Assembly: GCA_000165345.1 (NCBI GenBank)
Contig: CM000436.1
Coordinates: 992,001 to 1,056,000, forward strand
Length of the DNA: 64,000 nt
Direction: 5' to 3'
Shown here: positions 5,500 to 63,376 of the stretch, piece by piece
Layout of the letters: each line of letters begins with the position of its first letter
Numbering within the stretch: the first letter of the stretch is position 1
Notes under the pieces: generated by a model
Seen by the model: only the letters and a program-made list of their open reading frames with translations
Told to the model about the DNA's origin: nothing
The model's database searches: none
Program-made: the position numbers and the translations under genes

Positions 5500-5799
5500 T
5501 TTTAATTATAAATAATTGCATGCACAAGAATAAATATAAAATAACTGTGTGTGCGAGAGAGAGCGCGCCAACATTGCATGTTTTTTTTTTTTTTTTTTGA
5601 ATGGAATTGAATTGAATTATAATATAAACTTGAACAAAAGTTATTATTTATTGAAATGAAAGAAACAATTGTAATGCAATTTTTTTCTTTCGTAATTACA
5701 GTAGGAAATATTTGATTTAATTATTATAATAGAAGAAGAAAAAAATTAGAATAGAAAATATATAGAATACCATAGTTAATAAATATATTTATTTAGTGA

Positions 5800-5833
5800 T
5801 TAATAAAGCCTATAAGATAAATTTAAATTAGTT
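5800..5833. repeat. Copy 1 of a dispersed AT-rich element, TTAATAAAGCCTATAAGATAAATTTAAATTAG. Copy 2 is at 33723-33756.
   Basis: The two copies share 22 of 23 positions across AAGCCTATAAGATA(T)AAATTTA. Both lie in 3'-flanking intergenic DNA. Confidence 0.6.
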
Positions 5834-5905
5834 ATTTAATATATTAGCGAGGTTTTGAGCAGTTTATCAATATTGGTATTAATTTTAAACAATTATGTAA
5901 TGGAG

Positions 5906-8839
5906 TTACATTTTGAATTCTGAAGAGAATTTAGAATAGGTTGATCCAAATTGTAAAATAACTGATTGAATATGAGGAACAAGATCATTAATATGAACTT
6001 CTTGGGAAGAAACAGAAGTAGTTTGTTCTGTTTCTGTTTCTGATTGGTTATTATGGATGAATTTGAATTGAACAGTCTCCTTTAAAGCTTCGCTTTCTCC
6101 GATAATAATACAATAAGGAATATTATTATTGGAAGCATAGTCGAGTTGTTTTCTAAGTTTTCCATTTCCTGTAAGGGAAATTTCGCAAGAAATGTGATTA
6201 TCCCATAATAATGACGCAATTTTGAATCTATATTCAAGGAAGGAGTCACCAACATTACAAATAAGTACATCCGTGAAAGATCCTTTTGAGGAGTGATTGT
6301 GAGTTTTACAAGCCTCAAATTTTTTTTCAATTATACTCATAATACGCTCAACTCCAACAGAAAAGCCGACTGCGGGGATATTTTTCTGGGAAAACATTCC
6401 AATAAGCTGATCATATCTTCCACCTGCTGCAATACTACCAACATTTAACTCATTTGAGATTAATACGGCTTCATATATAACTCCAGTATAATAGTCTAAT
6501 CCACGAGCAAGAGAAAGATCAAAAGAAAGATAGTTAATACAGTTGTTACAACTCTTTGTATACTTGAAAAGAGTTTCCAGTTCTTCTAATGCTTTCATAA
6601 TGTTCTTATTTTCCATCATTTCTTGATTAGATTTAATTTTTTCTAAAACATCAAATGGAGTTCCTTTTAATTGAATTATTGATCCAATCTTATCAACAGT
6701 GGATTCTGATAAGCCTTTAATATTAATCATTTCATTTCTCACGCTTTCCCATGGTTCCTTATCAAGTTTGTCAATAGATGAGCAGGTTGTTTTAAATTTC
6801 TCATTGGGTACTCCTGAAATTTCAAGTATACCATCCAAGAGTTGTCTATGATTTATCTTAATCATGAATTGGCCAATCCAATTAGAAAAGGAAGATAATA
6901 CTTGAGTTGCAATCTTAATGATCTCAGAGTCAGCAACCATTGAATCATAATGACCAACAATATCCAAATCACATTGATAAAATTCTCTAAATCTTCCTCT
7001 TGCCATTTGAGGCTCATCTCTTCTGTATACTTTTCCAATTTGATATCTTTTAAGGTGGTCAAGACCAGATGTTGCAATATATCTAGCTAAAGGTACTGTA
7101 AGATCATATCTAAGTGAAAGCTGTTCTCCACCTTGATCTTTTAAGTCGTAAATCAGCTTTGAATCTTCTCCATATTTACCTAAAAGCGTATCTTTGAGTT
7201 CAAATACTGGAGTATCAATTTCTACTGCTCCATGAGCTCTATATACTTCTCTAATCATTCCAAAAACTAGATTCTTAATTGCCATCTTCTGAGGAGTAAC
7301 ATCCTGAGTTCCTTTTGGAATTTTTGGACGTCTAAGAGATTGATTTTGAGGAGTTGTAATATATTTTAATGTTGAATCAAGTTTACAGATTTGTCCATCC
7401 CGGAAAATCTCTAGTATTTTGGAATAAATATTACTTTCAACACCGTTTTTACTTGATTCAAATATTGATGAATTTAATATCAAGTTAATCATAAATTGTC
7501 TAAATTCATGGATATTCTTTGATTCATGAGAAGCTATCGAAACTTCTTTTTTACCTTTCTTTTTAGCTTTCTCAATAGTAGATAAATATTGTTGGTAATT
7601 CTTGTCAGCAAGCTTTTGAAGTGATAAAATACAAATAATTGTAAAGATTTCAATATTCTCATTAGTCAAAACCTTTAATGCATCAATCAATTCCTTAGAC
7701 TCCTCCATTGTAGATATTCTTAATATTATAGATGAGTCAAATTGTCCATTAATCATTTCACTAATTCTAGAGTTAATATGAGACAAATCTTCTATAGTTA
7801 ATGGGGTTACAGACTTTGATATCTGCTCTATATTTAAACCTTGTACTGATATTTCTGAATCTAAAGCAAATTTAGAGAAGTCATTTTCAGAGACTATTTC
7901 TTCCTTAATTGTATCTCTTAAAAATAAATCCAAAAACTCGATACTTGATTTCTTCATATAATTAAGTGAAGATATAATATTCTTAAGTGGCTCCAAAATA
8001 GGCATAATCTCAATATAATCAATCGAATTTTCAATACCTTTTGTACTTGTAGTTACATTACCACTCTTAGCATAGAATCCCTTAATACATTTGCTTAAAT
8101 TTTCTATAGAATTCTGCAAAGTACCTAGTGAACATAAAATCTCAGATAACTTCACTCCAAGACTCTTGTTCTTCCATCTATTCTCCCTTTGAATTTTTGA
8201 ATCCTCTAGAAGCCATCTAACATTCCTTGTAGTTTCAGCTAAACCACCACTAGAAATGGATGATAAGTGAGCTAAAAAGCATAATGGAAAAGACATTGCC
8301 TCCACCAGTATTGCCAAAGTACATTCTCCAAAGCTTTTTAAAGAGGAAGAAATACCCAAATAAAGAGCAAGTTGAGAAACTGTCATACTGAAACCTTTTG
8401 TAAAGGCTCTTGCATCTCTCTTTGATACTTTATGCCCTGAAATTCTTAAATATTCTCCCAGCAAATTAGTTAAAGTCAATTCATCAGTACTCAAATATTT
8501 CACCTTTACTAATGTTGAACCCTTGTTTCTCAATTGCTCTAACAGCCACATCATTAACTTCTTAGATATTCCCTTTCCGTCGATTGCTATTCCCACTGCT
8601 TTAGTTAACATTAATGCTCTTACCTCACTTAAACTCAATTCCTTACCTTCTTGAACCATCCCCATTTCATTGTCACCTGTCCAAAAATCTCCATCTTTTA
8701 ACTGTTCTAACTCTTCACTTTCTCTCAACTTTGGCTCTAACACAAACTCAGATTTATCGCTTGTAGAAATCAATGCAACATCTTCCAAAGAAATCCCACC
8801 TGATCCAATAAAAAAGCTTTCTTTTCCATTTTGTACCAT
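5906..8839 (-). CDS. Histidyl-tRNA synthetase (class II aaRS) with a roughly 480-aa N-terminal extension of unknown function.
   Basis: HisRS motifs GTQDVTP, LRYDLTVPLARY, RRDEPQ...GRFREFYQCD and motif 3 GGRYDQL plus an anticodon-binding-like C-terminus lie in the C-terminal 500 aa. ATG at 8839. An E2F-like element lies about 120 bp upstream on the gene strand. Confidence 0.85.
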   Translation of the reverse strand: MVQNGKESFFIGSGGISLEDVALISTSDKSEFVLEPKLRESEELEQLKDGDFWTGDNEMGMVQEGKELSLSEVRALMLTKAVGIAIDGKGISKKLMMWLLEQLRNKGSTLVKVKYLSTDELTLTNLLGEYLRISGHKVSKRDARAFTKGFSMTVSQLALYLGISSSLKSFGECTLAILVEAMSFPLCFLAHLSSISSGGLAETTRNVRWLLEDSKIQRENRWKNKSLGVKLSEILCSLGTLQNSIENLSKCIKGFYAKSGNVTTSTKGIENSIDYIEIMPILEPLKNIISSLNYMKKSSIEFLDLFLRDTIKEEIVSENDFSKFALDSEISVQGLNIEQISKSVTPLTIEDLSHINSRISEMINGQFDSSIILRISTMEESKELIDALKVLTNENIEIFTIICILSLQKLADKNYQQYLSTIEKAKKKGKKEVSIASHESKNIHEFRQFMINLILNSSIFESSKNGVESNIYSKILEIFRDGQICKLDSTLKYITTPQNQSLRRPKIPKGTQDVTPQKMAIKNLVFGMIREVYRAHGAVEIDTPVFELKDTLLGKYGEDSKLIYDLKDQGGEQLSLRYDLTVPLARYIATSGLDHLKRYQIGKVYRRDEPQMARGRFREFYQCDLDIVGHYDSMVADSEIIKIATQVLSSFSNWIGQFMIKINHRQLLDGILEISGVPNEKFKTTCSSIDKLDKEPWESVRNEMINIKGLSESTVDKIGSIIQLKGTPFDVLEKIKSNQEMMENKNIMKALEELETLFKYTKSCNNCINYLSFDLSLARGLDYYTGVIYEAVLISNELNVGSIAAGGRYDQLIGMFSQKNIPAVGFSVGVERIMSIIEKKFEACKTHNHSSKGSFTDVLICNVGDSFLEYRFKIASLLWDNHISCEISLTGNGKLRKQLDYASNNNIPYCIIIGESEALKETVQFKFIHNNQSETETEQTTSVSSQEVHINDLVPHIQSVILQFGSTYSKFSSEFKM

Positions 8840-34318: not shown

Positions 34319-36463
34319 ATGGGGAGTGGAAGAAAAAGAATAAAAGTAGAAGAAAATGAGAAATCAATTGAAGTTGATAAAGAATTAAATCCATGGAACA
34401 ATGATAAACCATATTCAAATAAATATTATGAATTAAGAAAATTCAGAAAATCTCTTCCAGCTTGGTCAGAAAGAAAAACTTTCTGTAAATTAGTAAAAAA
34501 GAACCAAGTTGTGATTTTAGTTGGAGATACTGGTAGTGGAAAAACAACGCAATGCCCACAATTTATATTAGAATCTGGATTAGGAGGAAATTTAAAGATT
34601 GCATGTACTCAACCACGTAGAGTGGCGGCAATGAGTGTAGCTCAGAGAGTTTCAGAAGAAATGGATGTTTGTTTAGGTGATATTGTTGGATATACAATTA
34701 GATTTGAAGATAAGACAAATGAAAATACGAGACTTAAGTATGTAACAGATGGAATGTTACTTAGAGAAGCAATGTATGATAATGATTTATCTCAATATGG
34801 AGTAATTATTATTGATGAAGCACATGAGAGAACAATCTCAACAGATATTTTAATGGGATCGCTTAAAGAAATATTACTAAGAAGAAATTTTGAATCAAAA
34901 AATCCTTTAAGATTAGTAGTAATGAGTGCAACATTAGAATCAACAAAATTTCAAAGTTATTTTGGTAATGATTCACCAGTTTTTTCAATTCCAGGAAGAA
35001 TGTTCCCTGTTGAATTAATATATAATATAAAACCAGAAAAAGACTATTTAGAAGCATCAATACAAAAAGTACTTGATATACATGAGAATGAAGCACCAGG
35101 TGATATATTATTATTTTTAACAGGAGAAGAGGAAATAGAGCAGGCAAAACAACGTCTAGAATTTTTAAGTTCACCTTTAGAAGAACAATTTGGTGAATTA
35201 GTAATAATACCATTATATTCATCATTACCTCCATATAAACAACAGAAAATATTTGATAAAACTCCAGGACCAAAATATCCTGGTGGTCCTACAGGACGTA
35301 AAGTTGTAATAAGTACAAATATTGCAGAAACTAGTGTTACAATTGATGGAATAGTTTATGTAATAGATCCAGGATTTTCAAAACAAAAAGTATATAATCC
35401 CCGTACAAGAGTAGAATCATTACTCGTTTCACCAATATCAAAAGCTTCAGCAAAACAAAGAATGGGAAGAGCTGGTCGTACAAGAGAAGGTAAATGTTTT
35501 AGATTATATACTAAAGAAGCTTTTGAATCAGAATTGGCAGATCAAACACATCCTGAAATATTAAGAAGTAATTTAAGTAATGTTGTATTAATTTTAAAAA
35601 GTTTAGGTATTAATGATTTAGTTCATTTTGACTTTATGGATCCTCCAGCACCTGAAACTTTAATGAGAGCTCTTGAACAGCTTTATTTTTTAGAGGCAAT
35701 GGATGATGAAGGAGAACTAACTAAATTGGGAAAACTTATGACGGAATTTCCAATTGATCCTCAATTGGCTAGAATGTTAATAAAGTCATCAGAATTAGGA
35801 TGTGCTTCTCAGATATTATCTTTAGCAAGTTTATTAAATGTACCAAATATATTCTTAAGACCAAGAGATAAATCAAAAGAAGCTGATTATGCAAAATCTA
35901 GTTTTGTTGATCCAGATGGGGATCATTTAACTTTGTTATATGCATTTGAGTCTTTTAGAGAAGTATTATACAAGGATGAGAATAAAGCAAAAAAATTTGC
36001 AAAGGAGAATTTCTTGAATTATAGAGCACTAATTTCAGCAGAAAATGTAAGAAAACAGCTTGAAAGAACTTATCAAAAACATATACTTAATACAGGTAAT
36101 CATATTAATTCTGATAATGATCAAATTTCAGAATCAAAACTTAATATTTCTATTAGAAAAGCAATTACCCAGGGATTCTTCATGCAAGCAGCTTGTTTAC
36201 ATAGGTCTGGGCATTATACTACAGTTAGAGATAATCAAGTAGTACATCTTCATCCAAGTTGTGTTTTAAGTTCAAAACCAGAATGGGTATTATATAATGA
36301 GTTTGTTCTGACTTCTAGAAATTTTATCAGAACAGTAACTAAGATTAGAGGTGAATGGTTACTTGAGATTTCTCCAAAATACTATAATCTTGAAGATTTC
36401 CCGGAATGTGATTCTAAGAAGAAGCTTGCTCATCTTAATTATTTTTCTAATAAAAAATTCTAA
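34319..36463 (+). CDS. PRP43: DEAH-box RNA helicase Prp43/DHX15 (pre-mRNA splicing and ribosome biogenesis).
   Basis: Helicase motifs GDTGSGKTTQ (I), TQPRRVAA, DEAHER (II), SAT (III), TNIAETS (V) and QRMGRAGR (VI). The N-terminal NPWNNDKPYSNKYYELRKFRKSLPAW matches the Prp43 N-terminus. The 714-aa size fits. Confidence 0.9.
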   Translation: MGSGRKRIKVEENEKSIEVDKELNPWNNDKPYSNKYYELRKFRKSLPAWSERKTFCKLVKKNQVVILVGDTGSGKTTQCPQFILESGLGGNLKIACTQPRRVAAMSVAQRVSEEMDVCLGDIVGYTIRFEDKTNENTRLKYVTDGMLLREAMYDNDLSQYGVIIIDEAHERTISTDILMGSLKEILLRRNFESKNPLRLVVMSATLESTKFQSYFGNDSPVFSIPGRMFPVELIYNIKPEKDYLEASIQKVLDIHENEAPGDILLFLTGEEEIEQAKQRLEFLSSPLEEQFGELVIIPLYSSLPPYKQQKIFDKTPGPKYPGGPTGRKVVISTNIAETSVTIDGIVYVIDPGFSKQKVYNPRTRVESLLVSPISKASAKQRMGRAGRTREGKCFRLYTKEAFESELADQTHPEILRSNLSNVVLILKSLGINDLVHFDFMDPPAPETLMRALEQLYFLEAMDDEGELTKLGKLMTEFPIDPQLARMLIKSSELGCASQILSLASLLNVPNIFLRPRDKSKEADYAKSSFVDPDGDHLTLLYAFESFREVLYKDENKAKKFAKENFLNYRALISAENVRKQLERTYQKHILNTGNHINSDNDQISESKLNISIRKAITQGFFMQAACLHRSGHYTTVRDNQVVHLHPSCVLSSKPEWVLYNEFVLTSRNFIRTVTKIRGEWLLEISPKYYNLEDFPECDSKKKLAHLNYFSNKKF

Positions 36464-36614
36464 TGAACATGAATAAGTTATTTTTGTTATAAAATATTAC
36501 TAGAATTAAAAAGAATTGCCTTTTTCTCTTTATTTTAAATATATTGTTTAATATATTACGTGTCAATAATTTATTTATCACACATATTCATTAAAATAAT
36601 TATGCATCAATAGG

Positions 36615-37020
36615 TTTGGCGCTCTATAAGCATAATAATATATCATACCTTTTAATAGTTTTATTTTTTTCATTAAAACTTACTTCATTTTATTGTTTCA
36701 TCTTTTTTTCATTATTTCATTAATTCTTTCTTTCTCTCCTTAATATATATTAAAGAAAGATTAAATTTTCCTTCTACTATAATAAATATTTTTTATTTTT
36801 CAATCTATTCAAAATCTTTATCTACTAACACAACGCACTATTGCAATTAAAAAATATACATTTATAGAATACAACTGGTTTGGCGCCAAAGACTATTTGC
36901 ATTTCTTTTCCTCCAGTCTATTTTATACCTGTAACAATTCAATTAGAATATTTCCTTACATGCATGCAAGTATATGCATGCATTTATGTGGACCAAAAAA
37001 TACACGTGGGAGGGGCAGGG
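36615..37020. promoter_or_regulatory. Cluster of promoter-type elements in a convergent intergenic region: TTTGGCGC (36615), TTTGGCGCCAAA (36879-36890), two TGCATGCA boxes (36959-36985), CACGTG plus a G-rich box (37003-37020).
   Basis: Seen in sequence. The flanking genes end at 36463 (+) and 37493 (-), so neither promoter is expected here. Confidence 0.5.
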
Positions 37021-37492
37021 AAAAGTTTGAAAGCAGAAAAGGTAAATTAAATATATAATTAATGAAAGTTAGATTTTAGGATTTTTTTTCACTTTTTTTT
37101 AAATCATTTTCATTTAACGCAAATAAAAAATATTAATTTAAAAACGTAGAAAAGATAAATATTTTAGTTACTTGAATTATACAAGAATATTTACAAATTG
37201 TAAATATGTGAGTATATAATCTTGTATAAAACACAAATCAATGAGTTTGTGAAAAATTATTTTTTTTAATTTGATACTGTGGATATTAACTTTTCTTATG
37301 TTGGATTAAAATTATAAGTTATAGTATGAACAGTGAAGGGAAATATCATCTTTTTGCCTTTTTTCTGTTTTGTTTTTTTAGCGTTTCTAAAATGACCATT
37401 ACTTTAGCAGTATTAAAATAATAGTATATCCTGTCGTAAACAATTTTTAAATAAAGCATAATCAACGTTTTCTTATTCACTTATTTCAATTA

Positions 37493-39298
37493 CTATTGTA
37501 CTCCAGGATATCTTCTTATACCAGGAGGGGGAGGCGGAGGAGGAGGAGGTGGAGGCGCAGCTCCTCCCAAAGAAGCACCGAAAGGTGAACCAGTATTCAT
37601 GGGTGAAGATTGCACTGGATTATTTCCTCCCATCATTGGTGGAATAGAAGTTGGGGCAGAATAAGAAGATGATGACGGAGGTAGTGGTGGTGGTGGCAAT
37701 GTAGAGGAAACTGTTTTTGGAAACCCTGAACCAGAAATGGCATCTCCTCCTGACATATATGATGAGCTTGGTCTGGGAGCTTGTGGGAATAATCCTTGCT
37801 GAGGTTTTGGAGGAGGTGGACTTGTTACAAACTGTGAATTCAAAGCCTGTGAGGGAGGAGATATTGCTGGAGAAGAGGCAGTTACCAGAGGAGCTTTTGG
37901 CATTGGAGGAACCGTTGGCATTGGAGGAGCTGCTGGCATTGGAGGAGCTGCTGGCATTGGAGGAGCTGTTGGCATTGAAGGAGCTGCTGGCATTGGAGGA
38001 GCTGCTGGCATTGAAGGAGCTGCTGGCATTGGAGGAGCTGCTGGCATTGGAGCTGCTGGTATTGAAGGAGCTGCTGGCATTGAAGGAGCTGCTGGCATTG
38101 GATGGAGAGGGGACTTTTGAGAATGAAGACCTTGTTCTGATGGAGAAAAGGCCTGGCCAAAGTGGTGCTGGCCATTGGCAGACAATAGTGGAGGAGAAGA
38201 AGAGGAGCTCTCGCCCTTAAATTGAAATTGGCTTGGAGTCTGGGCTCCAATAGTTCCAGAATTTTGTCCCCCCTGTTCTTGGAGAGAGGGCTCCTGAGTC
38301 GGATGTTGATTATTCATTGCAGATTGGAAGTCATTACTGAGCTCAGAGCCAATATGTTGTTGTTGTTGCTGGTGTTGTTCGTTTCCTGATATATTGGTAA
38401 GAACCTCCCATTTACCTTCCGAGTTTTCTCTAAAGAGAGTAACAACATCCTCTCCACTAGAAGCAGCTAAAACTGTTCCTGTTACACTCCAAGATACCCT
38501 CCAGACTGGCTCATTAAAGTTAAGTACTTGGCTACTATGCCAACCTTGTCCATCAGCATCTTGAGTCCAAATGACTACAATTTTATCATCACCGCAAGAA
38601 GCAATAGTCTCAGCAAGAAGATCTACAGATGGTCTCCAAGCAACATCTCTTACCCACTCAGAGTGAGCAACATCCAAAGTCTGATTCATCTCAGAAAGCT
38701 CCTTTGTTTGTGGATCCTGCTTCCAGATACGTATCTGGTTATCACACCCTCCAGAAACAAGTCTTATAGTTTGGGAAGATGGATTTGACGGTGAATTACC
38801 TACAGAGTTAGTTGCTGGAGCCCAAGATACTGAATTTGCTCCATTTGGGTGTCCAAATACCTGCTTCTTTGTCCAGCTCCTAGTTTCTGGACTATATGAA
38901 CAAACAGCTACCGAACCATCCGAAATAGCACAGGCAAATTGAAGCCCAAAATCCCATGGACACCAACAAACACCATTAATTGAAGATAAAAAATCATCAC
39001 AAGAGTAAACAATTTCCCATCTTGATCTTTGAGTTTCTTTCCAAACTAGAACCTTCTTATCATATGAACAAGAAGCTAATACACTCCCAAATGTGGGGTG
39101 AGCCCAACAAACCTGCCAAACTGGCCCTTCGTGACCTCTTAATTCTGCCAAGAAAGTTGGCTGATCCGTAGAGACATCAAATATTCTTATTGTGTGATCT
39201 GATGATGCTGTTGCCAGTCTACGGCCATAATAATCTAATTGTGTGTCATGCACTGGACCAGTATGGCCAGTATCAAAAGTTCCAATAACTTCCGCCAT
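37493..39298 (-). CDS. SEC13: Sec13 (COPII / nuclear-pore WD40 protein) fused to a roughly 300-aa Gln/Pro-rich C-terminal extension. The extension contains about 10 tandem heptad PMPAAPS repeats and a terminal poly-Pro tract.
   Basis: The N-terminal 300 aa match Sec13: DTGHTGPVHDTQLDYYGRRLATASSDHTIRIFDV...LRGHEGPVWQVCWAHPTFGSVLASCSYDKKVLVWKE. The C-terminus has QHQQQQQH, then (PMPAAPS)n, then PPPPPPPPPPPPGIRRYPGVQ. ATG at 39298. Confidence 0.8.
   Translation of the reverse strand: MAEVIGTFDTGHTGPVHDTQLDYYGRRLATASSDHTIRIFDVSTDQPTFLAELRGHEGPVWQVCWAHPTFGSVLASCSYDKKVLVWKETQRSRWEIVYSCDDFLSSINGVCWCPWDFGLQFACAISDGSVAVCSYSPETRSWTKKQVFGHPNGANSVSWAPATNSVGNSPSNPSSQTIRLVSGGCDNQIRIWKQDPQTKELSEMNQTLDVAHSEWVRDVAWRPSVDLLAETIASCGDDKIVVIWTQDADGQGWHSSQVLNFNEPVWRVSWSVTGTVLAASSGEDVVTLFRENSEGKWEVLTNISGNEQHQQQQQHIGSELSNDFQSAMNNQHPTQEPSLQEQGGQNSGTIGAQTPSQFQFKGESSSSSPPLLSANGQHHFGQAFSPSEQGLHSQKSPLHPMPAAPSMPAAPSIPAAPMPAAPPMPAAPSMPAAPPMPAAPSMPTAPPMPAAPPMPAAPPMPTVPPMPKAPLVTASSPAISPPSQALNSQFVTSPPPPKPQQGLFPQAPRPSSSYMSGGDAISGSGFPKTVSSTLPPPPLPPSSSSYSAPTSIPPMMGGNNPVQSSPMNTGSPFGASLGGAAPPPPPPPPPPPGIRRYPGVQ
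37899..38102 (-). repeat. 21-bp tandem repeat (about 10 copies, GCTGCTGGCATTGGAGGAGCT and variants) encoding the PMPAAPS heptads of the Sec13 tail.
   Basis: Direct tandem periodicity of 21 bp. The ORF-track entries 37717..38220 (+) and 37882..38250 (-) are frame shadows of this repeat. Confidence 0.85.
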
Positions 39299-39456
39299 TA
39301 TTGGTGATTGCTTCTTTTTGGAGCTTGTATTCCAATATATATATAAATATATATATCCGGATTTTTTTTTCTACTTTTTATTTATTCTCTTTCCGCTCCC
39401 CCATTTTCTTCCTCTTTCTTTTTTCTCCGGGAAAGTGGGGAACGCGTATTCACAAG

Positions 39457-39483
39457 AGCGCGCCAAAAGATTAATACGGTACC
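39457..39483. promoter_or_regulatory. E2F-like element GAGCGCGCCAAAAG plus GGTACC in the divergent promoter between Sec13 (-) and the centrin-like gene (+).
   Basis: GC island at 39421-39483 within an AT-rich 640-bp divergent intergenic region. Confidence 0.55.
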
Positions 39484-39941
39484 TTTCCACGTAATATAAT
39501 AATAAATTTATATACTCATTTTTATATTAATGAAATAGAAAAAATAATCATTGTAGAATTGAATATTGTTCCAGAATTTTAATTGGCACAAGGTATACTG
39601 TTGAATTTAAAATCTTGGTGATACGTCTGTATCTTTCAACATACTTTAATTCTTAATTAAACTATGAACTATTAAGATAGATATCAAAATTAATATTAAT
39701 TTATGAATATATGTGTGCATATATATACCAATATTATTGAGTAATACTTTATTTTCTTTGAAATCTCAACTTTATTTGAAATACTTTAACCAGGGATTCT
39801 ATTTGAATCTTATTATTACCAAGAGCTGGATCTATAAATATTATTTAATAAATACAAATCCAGAACTTCAAGGCTTTCATCTAACTTTGAATTGAATTAA
39901 TTTTTTTAATTTAACATCAAATTCTTCTCTTAATAAAAGTT

Positions 39942-43333: not shown

Positions 43334-43813
43334 TAAATTAATATAATTAAATAATGAAAAAAAAAAGGGAAAAATAAGTTAACAAAAATAATTAAAAATA
43401 ATATAGAATTGTTAAGGAAAAAATAGAGAATTTTCTTACATTGATTAAATAATTTACATACTTAGGTTCTAATTAATATAATAGGAAATATTACCACATA
43501 CAAAGTCTTTAACCAACTATAGTGTTTGAAGCCAAACTTTATGTTAAAACAAAAATTAATTCGTTTTAGCTAAAGTATATAAGAATAATTTATAGCATCA
43601 TAATAAAATACTTGGATATACGAAAATTACTTTAAGGAAGTATTAAAGACAAGAGAAGATCTTTTGGAAAAGTAAAGAGAGTTATCTGAATTTAGTTTTC
43701 CTTTATATTTAAGAATTTAATTAGAAATTAAACATTAATTTCCATTAATTACAAAGAATTCAAACTAATTTCAGTTGAGTTTGCATCGTTTTTATATTAA
43801 TAAAACTAATCAT

Positions 43814-45292
<1,479 letters not shown>

Positions 45293-62886: not shown

Positions 62887-63376
62887 ATCTATTTATTTAA
62901 ATATATTAATATATATATTTATATATATTATATATTACTACAGATATCTTGTTTGCTACTTTATTTCCTCTCCTTTTTTTCCATTATATTTACTTAATTT
63001 CCTGACAAATTTGTTTTTCCTCGTTCCCTCATACTTTAATTAATTTAATGCAATTGACACGTAATGATTGCATGCGCATGCAAATTTGCAAGTTGATTTT
63101 TTTCTTTTCATGTGGACAATTTTTTGCATGTGCGAGGATTACATTAGTAAATTTATTATAATTAAAGGCTAAATCTGACTTTTAAGTGTTTTTTTTAAAT
63201 TTCCCTCTAAATTTAAATATTGGAATAATTTAAGAAAAATATTAGTTATTATTATTATTGGTATAAATAACTAATTATTAATTATAATAAGTTGATTATA
63301 TAAAAAAGATTGTCATAATGTCAATTTTACTATTATTAGTACCAAATAGTTTTGTGCCCCACTGTGGAACTCACAA

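Follow-up and report, generated by a model that had tools for sequence, protein, structure and literature searches.

Why should an interval between the 3' ends of two convergent genes, in which 3' untranslated regions (UTRs) are the expected content, carry the motifs of a promoter? This question is raised by a 64,000-nucleotide stretch of Cryptosporidium parvum chromosome 8 (GenBank assembly GCA_000165345.1, contig CM000436.1, positions 992,001 to 1,056,000 of the forward strand; hereafter the window), in which PRP43 on the plus strand lies tail to tail with a Sec13-like gene on the minus strand, separated by a gap of 1,029 base pairs (bp). A sequence-only reading of this DNA had placed the ends of the two genes at 36463 (+) and 37493 (-), which the coordinates of the open reading frames (ORFs) bear out, and had listed two E2F-like boxes, two TGCATGCA boxes and a CACGTG/G-rich box between them, all of which are present where it had put them. 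Our analysis confirms that this promoter-type motif cluster is real, conserved and misplaced for an interval of pure 3' UTR. We further consider it somewhat better than an even bet, judging from the DNA and its relatives, that an autonomous E2F/ApiAP2 promoter in the gap drives an unannotated non-coding or antisense transcript.

The motifs are strongly over-represented. Compared with counts expected from dinucleotide-preserving shuffles of the window, TGCATGCA occurs six times (0.47 expected), TTTGGCGC 14 times (0.17 expected, an 80-fold excess) and CACGTG six times (1.0 expected), and none of these counts was reached by any shuffle. Their distribution is promoter-specific: ten of the 11 copies of TTTGGCGC outside the gap are found in gaps upstream of start codons and one within a coding sequence (CDS), while the two other copies of ATGTGGAC in the window (23621 and 63110) are both in gaps upstream of genes. 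The idea that the gap uses a promoter vocabulary seen elsewhere in the window is therefore well founded, since the motifs are enriched and nearly all of their other copies lie upstream of genes. Most of this vocabulary has also been published: the C. parvum promoter motifs in Table 3 of PMC12246861 include AP2_1 (TGCATGCA), E2F ([A/T][C/G]GCGC[G/C][A/T]) and the G-box (G.GGGG), CACGTG not being among the Cryptosporidium motifs listed in that table, and ATGTGGAC is the reverse complement of motif5, TTGTCCACATK, which is found upstream of C. parvum long non-coding RNAs (lncRNAs; PMC7840661, Table S3). The E2F/DP1, ApiAP2 GCATGC and TTGTCCACATK motifs, which for lncRNAs are expected within 100 bp upstream of the start, are all present in the gap and conserved, near a start whose position is itself a prediction.

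Conservation was assessed by collecting the syntenic locus from nine Cryptosporidium species via their PRP43 orthologs. The gap measures ~950–1030 bp in six of them (C. parvum, C. tyzzeri, C. meleagridis, the chipmunk genotype, C. ubiquitum and C. canis) and is shorter in C. felis (~430 bp), C. ryanae (~308 bp) and C. andersoni (~155 bp). E2F box 1 is present at the equivalent position in the six species with a long gap, as GGTTTGGCGCTC in C. parvum, C. tyzzeri and C. meleagridis, AATTTGGCGCGC in the chipmunk genotype, AATTTGGCGGGAAA in C. ubiquitum and ATGGCGCCAA in C. canis. The second TGCATGCA and its neighbouring box form a composite, GCATGCA-TT(T/A)ATGTGG(A)C, which is conserved in seven of seven species including C. 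felis, where blastn aligns this promoter block (36943–36991) and nothing else. Other elements are less stable: E2F box 2 is shared by C. parvum, C. tyzzeri and the chipmunk genotype, C. meleagridis has a degenerate form of it and C. ubiquitum and C. canis have none, and CACGTG occurs only in C. parvum and C. meleagridis, being absent even from C. tyzzeri. A G/GA-rich tract of 35–50 nucleotides (nt) is found in six species with conserved composition and varying sequence. The gaps of C. ryanae and C. andersoni give only AT-rich noise when compared with the C. parvum gap by blastn. The syntenic comparison therefore upholds the cluster, with E2F box 1 in six species and the composite of AP2_1 and ATGTGG in seven, and the gap holds over-represented motifs that are clustered within a few hundred bp and conserved at orthologous positions.

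Two side observations concern the composite. Two of the lncRNAs of Li et al. 2021, among them Cp_lnc_62, also contain the pattern GCATG-N-(A/T)TGTGG(A/T)C, and the AP2_1 box of C. canis (locus L008, ~8575–8620) stands within an inverted pair, GTCCACAT ... TGCATGCA ... ATGTGGAC. Together, these copies hint at a bipartite site for some factor.

Downstream of the cluster, the sequence is conserved in blocks and has no ORF. In order, the AP2 composite is followed by a G/GA-rich tract, an AT-rich block (block B), a T-tract and then further conserved blocks. From AATTAAAT on, block B does not differ between C. parvum, the chipmunk genotype and C. ubiquitum; it matches at 22 of 22 positions in C. meleagridis from TAAATT, is partly kept in C. 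canis and occurs once in the window. Alignments by blastn extend from 37039 to 37492 against C. ubiquitum (E 2e-32) and from 37037 to 37183 against C. canis (E 3e-9), and the body shared with these two species comprises ~260–430 nt of AT-rich sequence that is absent from C. ryanae and C. andersoni. Identity to C. parvum in the core (37024–37290) is 0.90 for C. meleagridis, 0.74 for the chipmunk genotype, 0.68 for C. ubiquitum and 0.57 for C. canis, as compared with 0.83, 0.62, 0.55 and 0.39 in the tail (37291–37440) and 0.81, 0.47, 0.41 and 0.40 in the left spacer (36601–36870). Averaged over C. ubiquitum and C. canis, core identity is 0.55–0.76 versus 0.3–0.5 for other intergenic DNA of the locus. 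A scan of metagenomes with block B returned 40 AT-rich chance matches, none with flanking similarity. An ancient tandem duplication within the gap (repeat pairs D2 and D5) was rejected, as its local alignment score equalled that of shuffles.

This body is non-coding by every measure applied. The longest ORFs of the gap are 53–56 amino acids (aa) with TTG starts and none is conserved, the core has stop codons in every frame, and the conserved blocks emerge from tblastx in several frames of both strands, interrupted by stop codons and without frame preference, in agreement with the sequence-only reading, which had seen no convincing ORF. When two ORFs of the gap were looked up by exact match in the assembly collection, neither was on record, and a 9-codon ORF at 37393–37422 was discarded (its ATG is lost in C. 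tyzzeri and its frame is shifted in the chipmunk genotype).

The direction in which such a promoter would fire can be approached by comparison with the promoter of cgd8_4110, as we call the Sec13-like gene. On its sense strand, that promoter (39299–39500, minus strand) presents an E2F box, a G-box, a GA-rich tract and an AT/TA-rich block in this order, and the plus strand of the gap has the same order of motif cluster, G-box, GA tract and AT block. The ~200 nt upstream of cgd8_4110 are also the best-conserved non-coding stretch seen at the locus (0.8–0.9 identical to C. ubiquitum and C. canis) and hold ACGTG, TTTTGGCGCGC, GTTCCCCAC, TTTCCCGG, a GA tract and a (TA)n block, with a TTCCCCAC core that is kept even in C. 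ryanae. Composition offers a second approach. The 150 nt upstream of start codons in the window are purine-rich on the sense strand (GC skew +0.20, AT skew +0.12) and 3' flanks are unskewed; on the plus strand, the spacer at 36640–36870 has a GC skew of -0.33 and an AT skew of -0.14. A switch in skew occurs at the AP2 composite in six species, where the minus strand is purine-rich to the left and the plus strand G-rich to the right. This switch fits a bidirectional promoter, as weak evidence given how noisy skew is in other gaps.

A second convergent gap in the window has similar features. Located directly after the stop codon of a 1819-aa plus-strand gene, the 406-bp gap at 5500–5905 contains the full promoter vocabulary: TTGCATGCA (5516–5524), GTGTGTG (5547–5553), GAGAGAGAG (5555–5563), the E2F-like GCGCGCCAA (5563–5571) and TTGCATG, as well as a run of 18 T at 5581–5598. 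These motifs probably make up the promoter of an RNA antisense to the minus-strand gene at 5906–8839. As this gap carries the same vocabulary, promoters at gene 3' ends are not unique to the PRP43 gap within the window, and the latter is not the lone convergent gap with these motifs.

Because published promoter motifs are combined with conservation in orthologous gaps and with conserved, ORF-less sequence downstream, a non-coding transcript is the best reading of the locus. The suggestion of such a transcript made from the sequence alone is plausible in view of the conserved motifs and body, its transcription being a prediction from DNA. In the scheme that we propose, E2F/DP and ApiAP2 factors would bind the boxes at 36615, 36879 and 36961–36993, and RNA polymerase II would start on the plus strand at ~37020–37110, past the G/GA-rich tract, AT block and T-tract. 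The resulting plus-strand transcript would cross the core (to ~37290–37440) towards, and probably into, the 3' end of cgd8_4110. Its product would be a long intergenic non-coding RNA (lincRNA) or a natural antisense RNA of a class already catalogued in C. parvum, and may function through cis interference with cgd8_4110 or in a sequence-dependent trans role. E2F box 1, at 150 nt past the PRP43 stop codon, may also fire a minus-strand RNA antisense to PRP43, which would make the promoter bidirectional.

Several observations weigh against this interpretation. Neither the gap locus nor an antisense RNA of either neighbour was found in the portion of the lncRNA sequences and tables of Li et al. 2021 (PMC7840661) that was searched, and nine Cryptosporidium assemblies are all without a protein gene call between PRP43 and the Sec13-like gene. 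At four-fold degenerate sites of PRP43, identity to C. parvum is 0.93 for C. meleagridis, 0.77 for the chipmunk genotype, 0.66 for C. ubiquitum and 0.43 for C. canis, such that the core equals these sites in the first three and exceeds them only in C. canis. As the core only matches synonymous-site identity in the closer species, the constraint is block-wise and promoter-grade rather than extreme. Conserved blocks separated by variable spacers could equally represent protein-binding DNA, and the strand call combines analogy with a skew in composition that proved noisy when other gaps served as the control.

Among the competing explanations, the one that survives best dispenses with an independent transcript, and we regard it as unlikely. 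The gap would be made up of the 3' UTRs of cgd8_4110 and PRP43, both long and perhaps overlapping, with the AT-rich blocks serving as cis elements of the 3' UTR or 3' flank (sites for RNA-binding proteins or end-processing signals); a 3' regulatory module remains a live alternative. Consistent with this, the core is AT/U-rich and unstructured with short conserved blocks and variable spacers, the gap is without a called gene, and short-read data are reported to indicate extensive UTR overlap between C. parvum genes on any strand (PMC11761812). However, it leaves unexplained why conserved E2F and AP2_1/ATGTGG sites, which elsewhere lie upstream of genes, should be present at all. Other 3' flanks in the same species set are also poorly conserved (0.26–0.56), the core begins >200 nt past the cgd8_4110 stop codon, and C. 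ryanae and C. andersoni manage with 150–300 bp in total.

A slightly less likely explanation is a promoter that fires leftward only, on the minus strand, yielding an RNA antisense to the 3' end of PRP43, with the core as an untranscribed upstream regulatory region. The left half of the gap is purine-rich on the minus strand in six species (GC skew +0.33, AT skew +0.14), as 5' leaders are; E2F box 1 is 150 nt from the PRP43 stop codon, a typical start region for antisense lncRNAs (PMC7840661); and at 63070–63117 the order ATGTGGAC then GCATGC runs towards the gene. Yet no part of the gap is less conserved than the left half, analogy with cgd8_4110 makes the G-box, GA tract and AT block face right, and the noise of the skew control applies here as well.

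We give a similarly small chance to the view that the ~260-nt core (37024–37290) is the functional element itself, either a trans-acting lincRNA or a DNA element such as a CENH3 site or replication origin. As such, it may have been gained when the gap grew from ~150–300 bp to ~1 kb in the lineage of C. parvum, C. hominis, C. meleagridis, C. ubiquitum and C. canis, and may be more than a mere by-product of an antisense promoter. In a trans-acting lincRNA, the perfectly conserved 15–22-nt blocks may be pairing or protein-binding sites. Taken alone, the chromatin variant, in which the gap is an intergenic CENH3-enriched window or a replication origin, appears improbable. The chromosomes of C. parvum are holocentric, with 58 intergenic CENH3-enriched windows of 400 bp, and GA-rich motifs typify these sites (Kimball et al., bioRxiv 10.1101/2025.09.30.679541); the gap has GA-rich tracts at 37008–37041 (+) and 36725–36745 (-), and its AT-rich blocks are conserved without RNA structure or coding potential. 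But GA repeats also occur at many sites without CENH3 (bioRxiv 10.1101/2025.09.30.679541), and CENH3 sites, which are recognised in CUT&RUN by enrichment of CENH3 and H3K9me3, are poor in trimethylated lysine 4 of histone H3 (H3K4me3) while the gap looks promoter-like.

Even less probable is a structured housekeeping RNA missed by Rfam, such as RNase MRP RNA, telomerase RNA or a small nucleolar RNA (snoRNA). The size range would be compatible, and the Rfam annotation of C. parvum contains U1–U6, U3, signal recognition particle (SRP) RNA and RNase P without MRP or telomerase RNA (PMC9465071). Against it, Rfam gave no match at the gathering score in the whole window, and at E≤10 it returned only noise at E ~9 for the C. 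parvum gap and nothing for those of C. canis and C. felis. Sliding RNAalifold with column-shuffle tests revealed no conserved RNA structure (structure conservation index (SCI) 0–0.2 on both strands), and z-scores of minimum free energy ranged from +1.2 to -3.8 in six species (-0.4 and -1.3 in C. parvum) and were inconsistent between them. ARAGORN found no transfer RNA. Inspection of the alignments by eye showed no conserved C/D box pair or telomere-template permutation. As the element is absent at the syntenic site in C. ryanae and C. andersoni, it is not an essential RNA such as MRP or telomerase RNA. Other candidates rejected by eye were C/D or H/ACA snoRNAs, a U1-like RNA and a yeast-type point centromere (CDEI CACGTG), whose boxes are absent or not conserved, and a telomerase template (CCTAAA permutations), for which a single partial match is lost in C. 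meleagridis. A bacterial promoter and terminator scan is uninformative for a eukaryote.

Least credible of all, and refuted by the species comparison, is the small spliced protein-coding gene that the sequence-only reading had entertained, with MHLCGPKNTRGRGREKFESRK as exon 1. The mini-ORF (start at 36978), its AAAAG|GTAAAT donor (37041/37042) and the T7-AG acceptor (37374–37382) do exist in C. parvum but are not conserved: the frame is shifted by 1 nt in C. tyzzeri and meets a stop within 2–11 codons in the chipmunk genotype, C. ubiquitum, C. canis and C. felis, C. ubiquitum has GATAAAT and C. meleagridis GTTAAAT at the donor, neither the chipmunk genotype nor C. ubiquitum has the acceptor AG, no frame is preferred in tblastx and no such product is on record.

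The features of the gap are collected in Table 1. An imperfect hairpin within the core differs by two changes in the chipmunk genotype, the first compensatory and the second disruptive, while different palindromes occupy this site in C. ubiquitum and C. canis.

Table 1. Features between PRP43 and cgd8_4110, in window coordinates.
Feature	Position	Strand	Remarks
PRP43 (cgd8_4100) 3' flank	36464–36600	+	blastn vs C. ubiquitum aligns 36475–36593 (E 2e-8); local conservation peak 36524–36564; probably PRP43 3' UTR and end-processing region
E2F/DP box 1, TTTGGCGC	36615–36622	.	kept in six species
Spacer, pyrimidine-rich on plus strand	36640–36870	.	poorly conserved; from identity and skew
E2F/DP box 2, palindrome TTTGGCGCCAAA	36879–36890	.	
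Two ApiAP2 AP2_1 boxes, TGCATGCA	36961–36968 and 36975–36982	+	fused to ATGTGGAC (36986–36993)
CACGTG	37003–37008	+	
CACGTG, G-box (GGGAGGGG) and purine-rich (GA) tract	37003–37041	+	G/GA-rich tract in six species
G-rich GGGAGGGGCAGGG	37008–37020	+	
Block-conserved core without ORF	37024–37290	+	blocks B, C (37126–37147), D (37166–37190) and F (37243–37260); variable spacers between; would be the 5' part of the proposed non-coding transcript
AT-rich block B, TAAATTAAATATATAATTAATG	37043–37064	+	TATA-like, 22 nt; covers the donor-like site of the sequence-only reading
Imperfect hairpin, TTATACAAGA ... TCTTGTATAA	37177–37229	.	repeat pair 89% complementary; weak evidence
Tail to cgd8_4110 3' flank	37291–37440	+	moderately conserved; collinear with C. 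ubiquitum through 37492

With respect to the neighbouring genes, the ORF at 34319–36463 (+) is identical to PRP43 of C. parvum Iowa II (EAK89557, CPATCC_004269) and corresponds to cgd8_4100, which the literature confirms as PRP43. The ORF at 37493–39298 (-) encodes 601 aa with a Sec13-type WD40 N-terminus and a long proline-rich tail; we assign it to cgd8_4110 from its position, without a direct name match, and the centrin-like cgd8_4120 is the next gene after it. The window contains eight convergent gaps, of which that between PRP43 and cgd8_4110 is the largest, with 2.5 to 100 times the length of the other seven (9, 60, 70, 183, 243, 342 and 406 bp).

Further observations were made on these genes and on their syntenic loci. 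The exact 601-aa Sec13-like protein is absent from a collection of 15 billion proteins in which PRP43 and the centrin-like neighbour are present, and its orthologs are 601, 616, 623 and 624 aa long with differences in a PMPAAPS-type repeat that hint at polymorphism in repeat length. In the C. tyzzeri assembly, one N stands just within the 3' end of the gene. In C. canis, a 261-aa plus-strand 'gene' (L008 9137–9922) is annotated antisense to the proline-rich half of the Sec13-like gene, whose own model (L008 9959–10965, minus strand) is shortened to 316 aa; given the conserved ...RRYPGVQ* end near L008 9125, this model looks mis-split. The 155-bp gap of C. andersoni (L011 8137–8290) consists mostly of two ~40-nt copies (ACTTTTAGCTRTTTTAATATTA...TTTGTACAATAT). 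Elsewhere in the window, the E2F-type sites GGTGGCGCCAGC and TTTGGCGCCTCC, the sole E2F copies of the window within a CDS, are found together with CACGTG (44872–44907 and 45039) in the Gly/Arg-rich 3' part of the ORF at 43775–45292 and could represent an internal promoter, an antisense promoter or a coding coincidence.

If the gap is transcribed as proposed, it would add one more lineage-restricted non-coding gene to a 9-megabase genome in which ~10% of genes have antisense partners of unknown function. It would also be a convenient test case, combining a compact promoter of defined E2F and ApiAP2 sites and the little-studied ATGTGGAC box with body blocks that can be mutated one by one and with single neighbours, the COPII-type Sec13-like gene and PRP43, as candidate targets. 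For annotation of Cryptosporidium genomes, we suggest that any convergent gap well over ~400 bp with conserved promoter motifs be checked for a missing non-coding gene. No established view is altered by the finding, as this kind of object is already known in C. parvum.

Stranded RNA-seq has defined 396 lncRNAs in C. parvum, 92% of them antisense, with E2F/DP1 and ApiAP2 GCATGC as the top two upstream motifs and TTGTCCACATK as the fifth (PMC7840661), and the telomere-to-telomere CpBGF assembly has 766 annotated lncRNAs (PMC12179316). In sporozoites, E2F and poly-T motifs dominate the peaks from the assay for transposase-accessible chromatin with sequencing (ATAC-seq), more than half of the peaks being called bidirectional (PMC11761812). 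The gap resembles these lncRNA loci (PMC7840661; PMC12179316) in that its body is non-coding, AT-rich and located at the 3' end of a sense gene, with E2F/DP1, GCATGC and TTGTCCACATK motifs upstream of its putative start, and some lncRNAs are likewise conserved in related species. It differs in that its body is conserved within intergenic DNA rather than over a neighbour's CDS, and its transcript is predicted from sequence. A second class for comparison is that of the novel intergenic intermediate-size ncRNAs (is-ncRNAs; Li et al. 2022, PMC9465071). These are intergenic as well, reach ~530 nt and belong to no known family, and in one group of them conservation is confined to the five closest relatives of C. 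parvum, a range similar to that of the gap body; unlike the gap body (SCI 0–0.2), the is-ncRNAs were chosen for RNAz-type conserved structure or high small-RNA read depth (PMC9465071).

Within the locus, the closest likeness in layout is the cgd8_4110 promoter (39299–39500), which has the same element order and block-wise conservation across C. ubiquitum and C. canis. Unlike the gap, it leads to a conserved ATG and ORF and is better conserved (0.8–0.9), in part as far as C. ryanae, whereas the gap carries AP2_1 boxes. Finally, antisense or cryptic transcripts arise in yeast and other compact genomes from promoters located in 3' nucleosome-depleted regions. The gap is similar to these in its position between convergent genes, in being probably bidirectional and in the predicted overlap of its non-coding RNAs with the 3' ends of its neighbours, and it is set apart from typical cryptic transcripts by a downstream sequence that is conserved in blocks.

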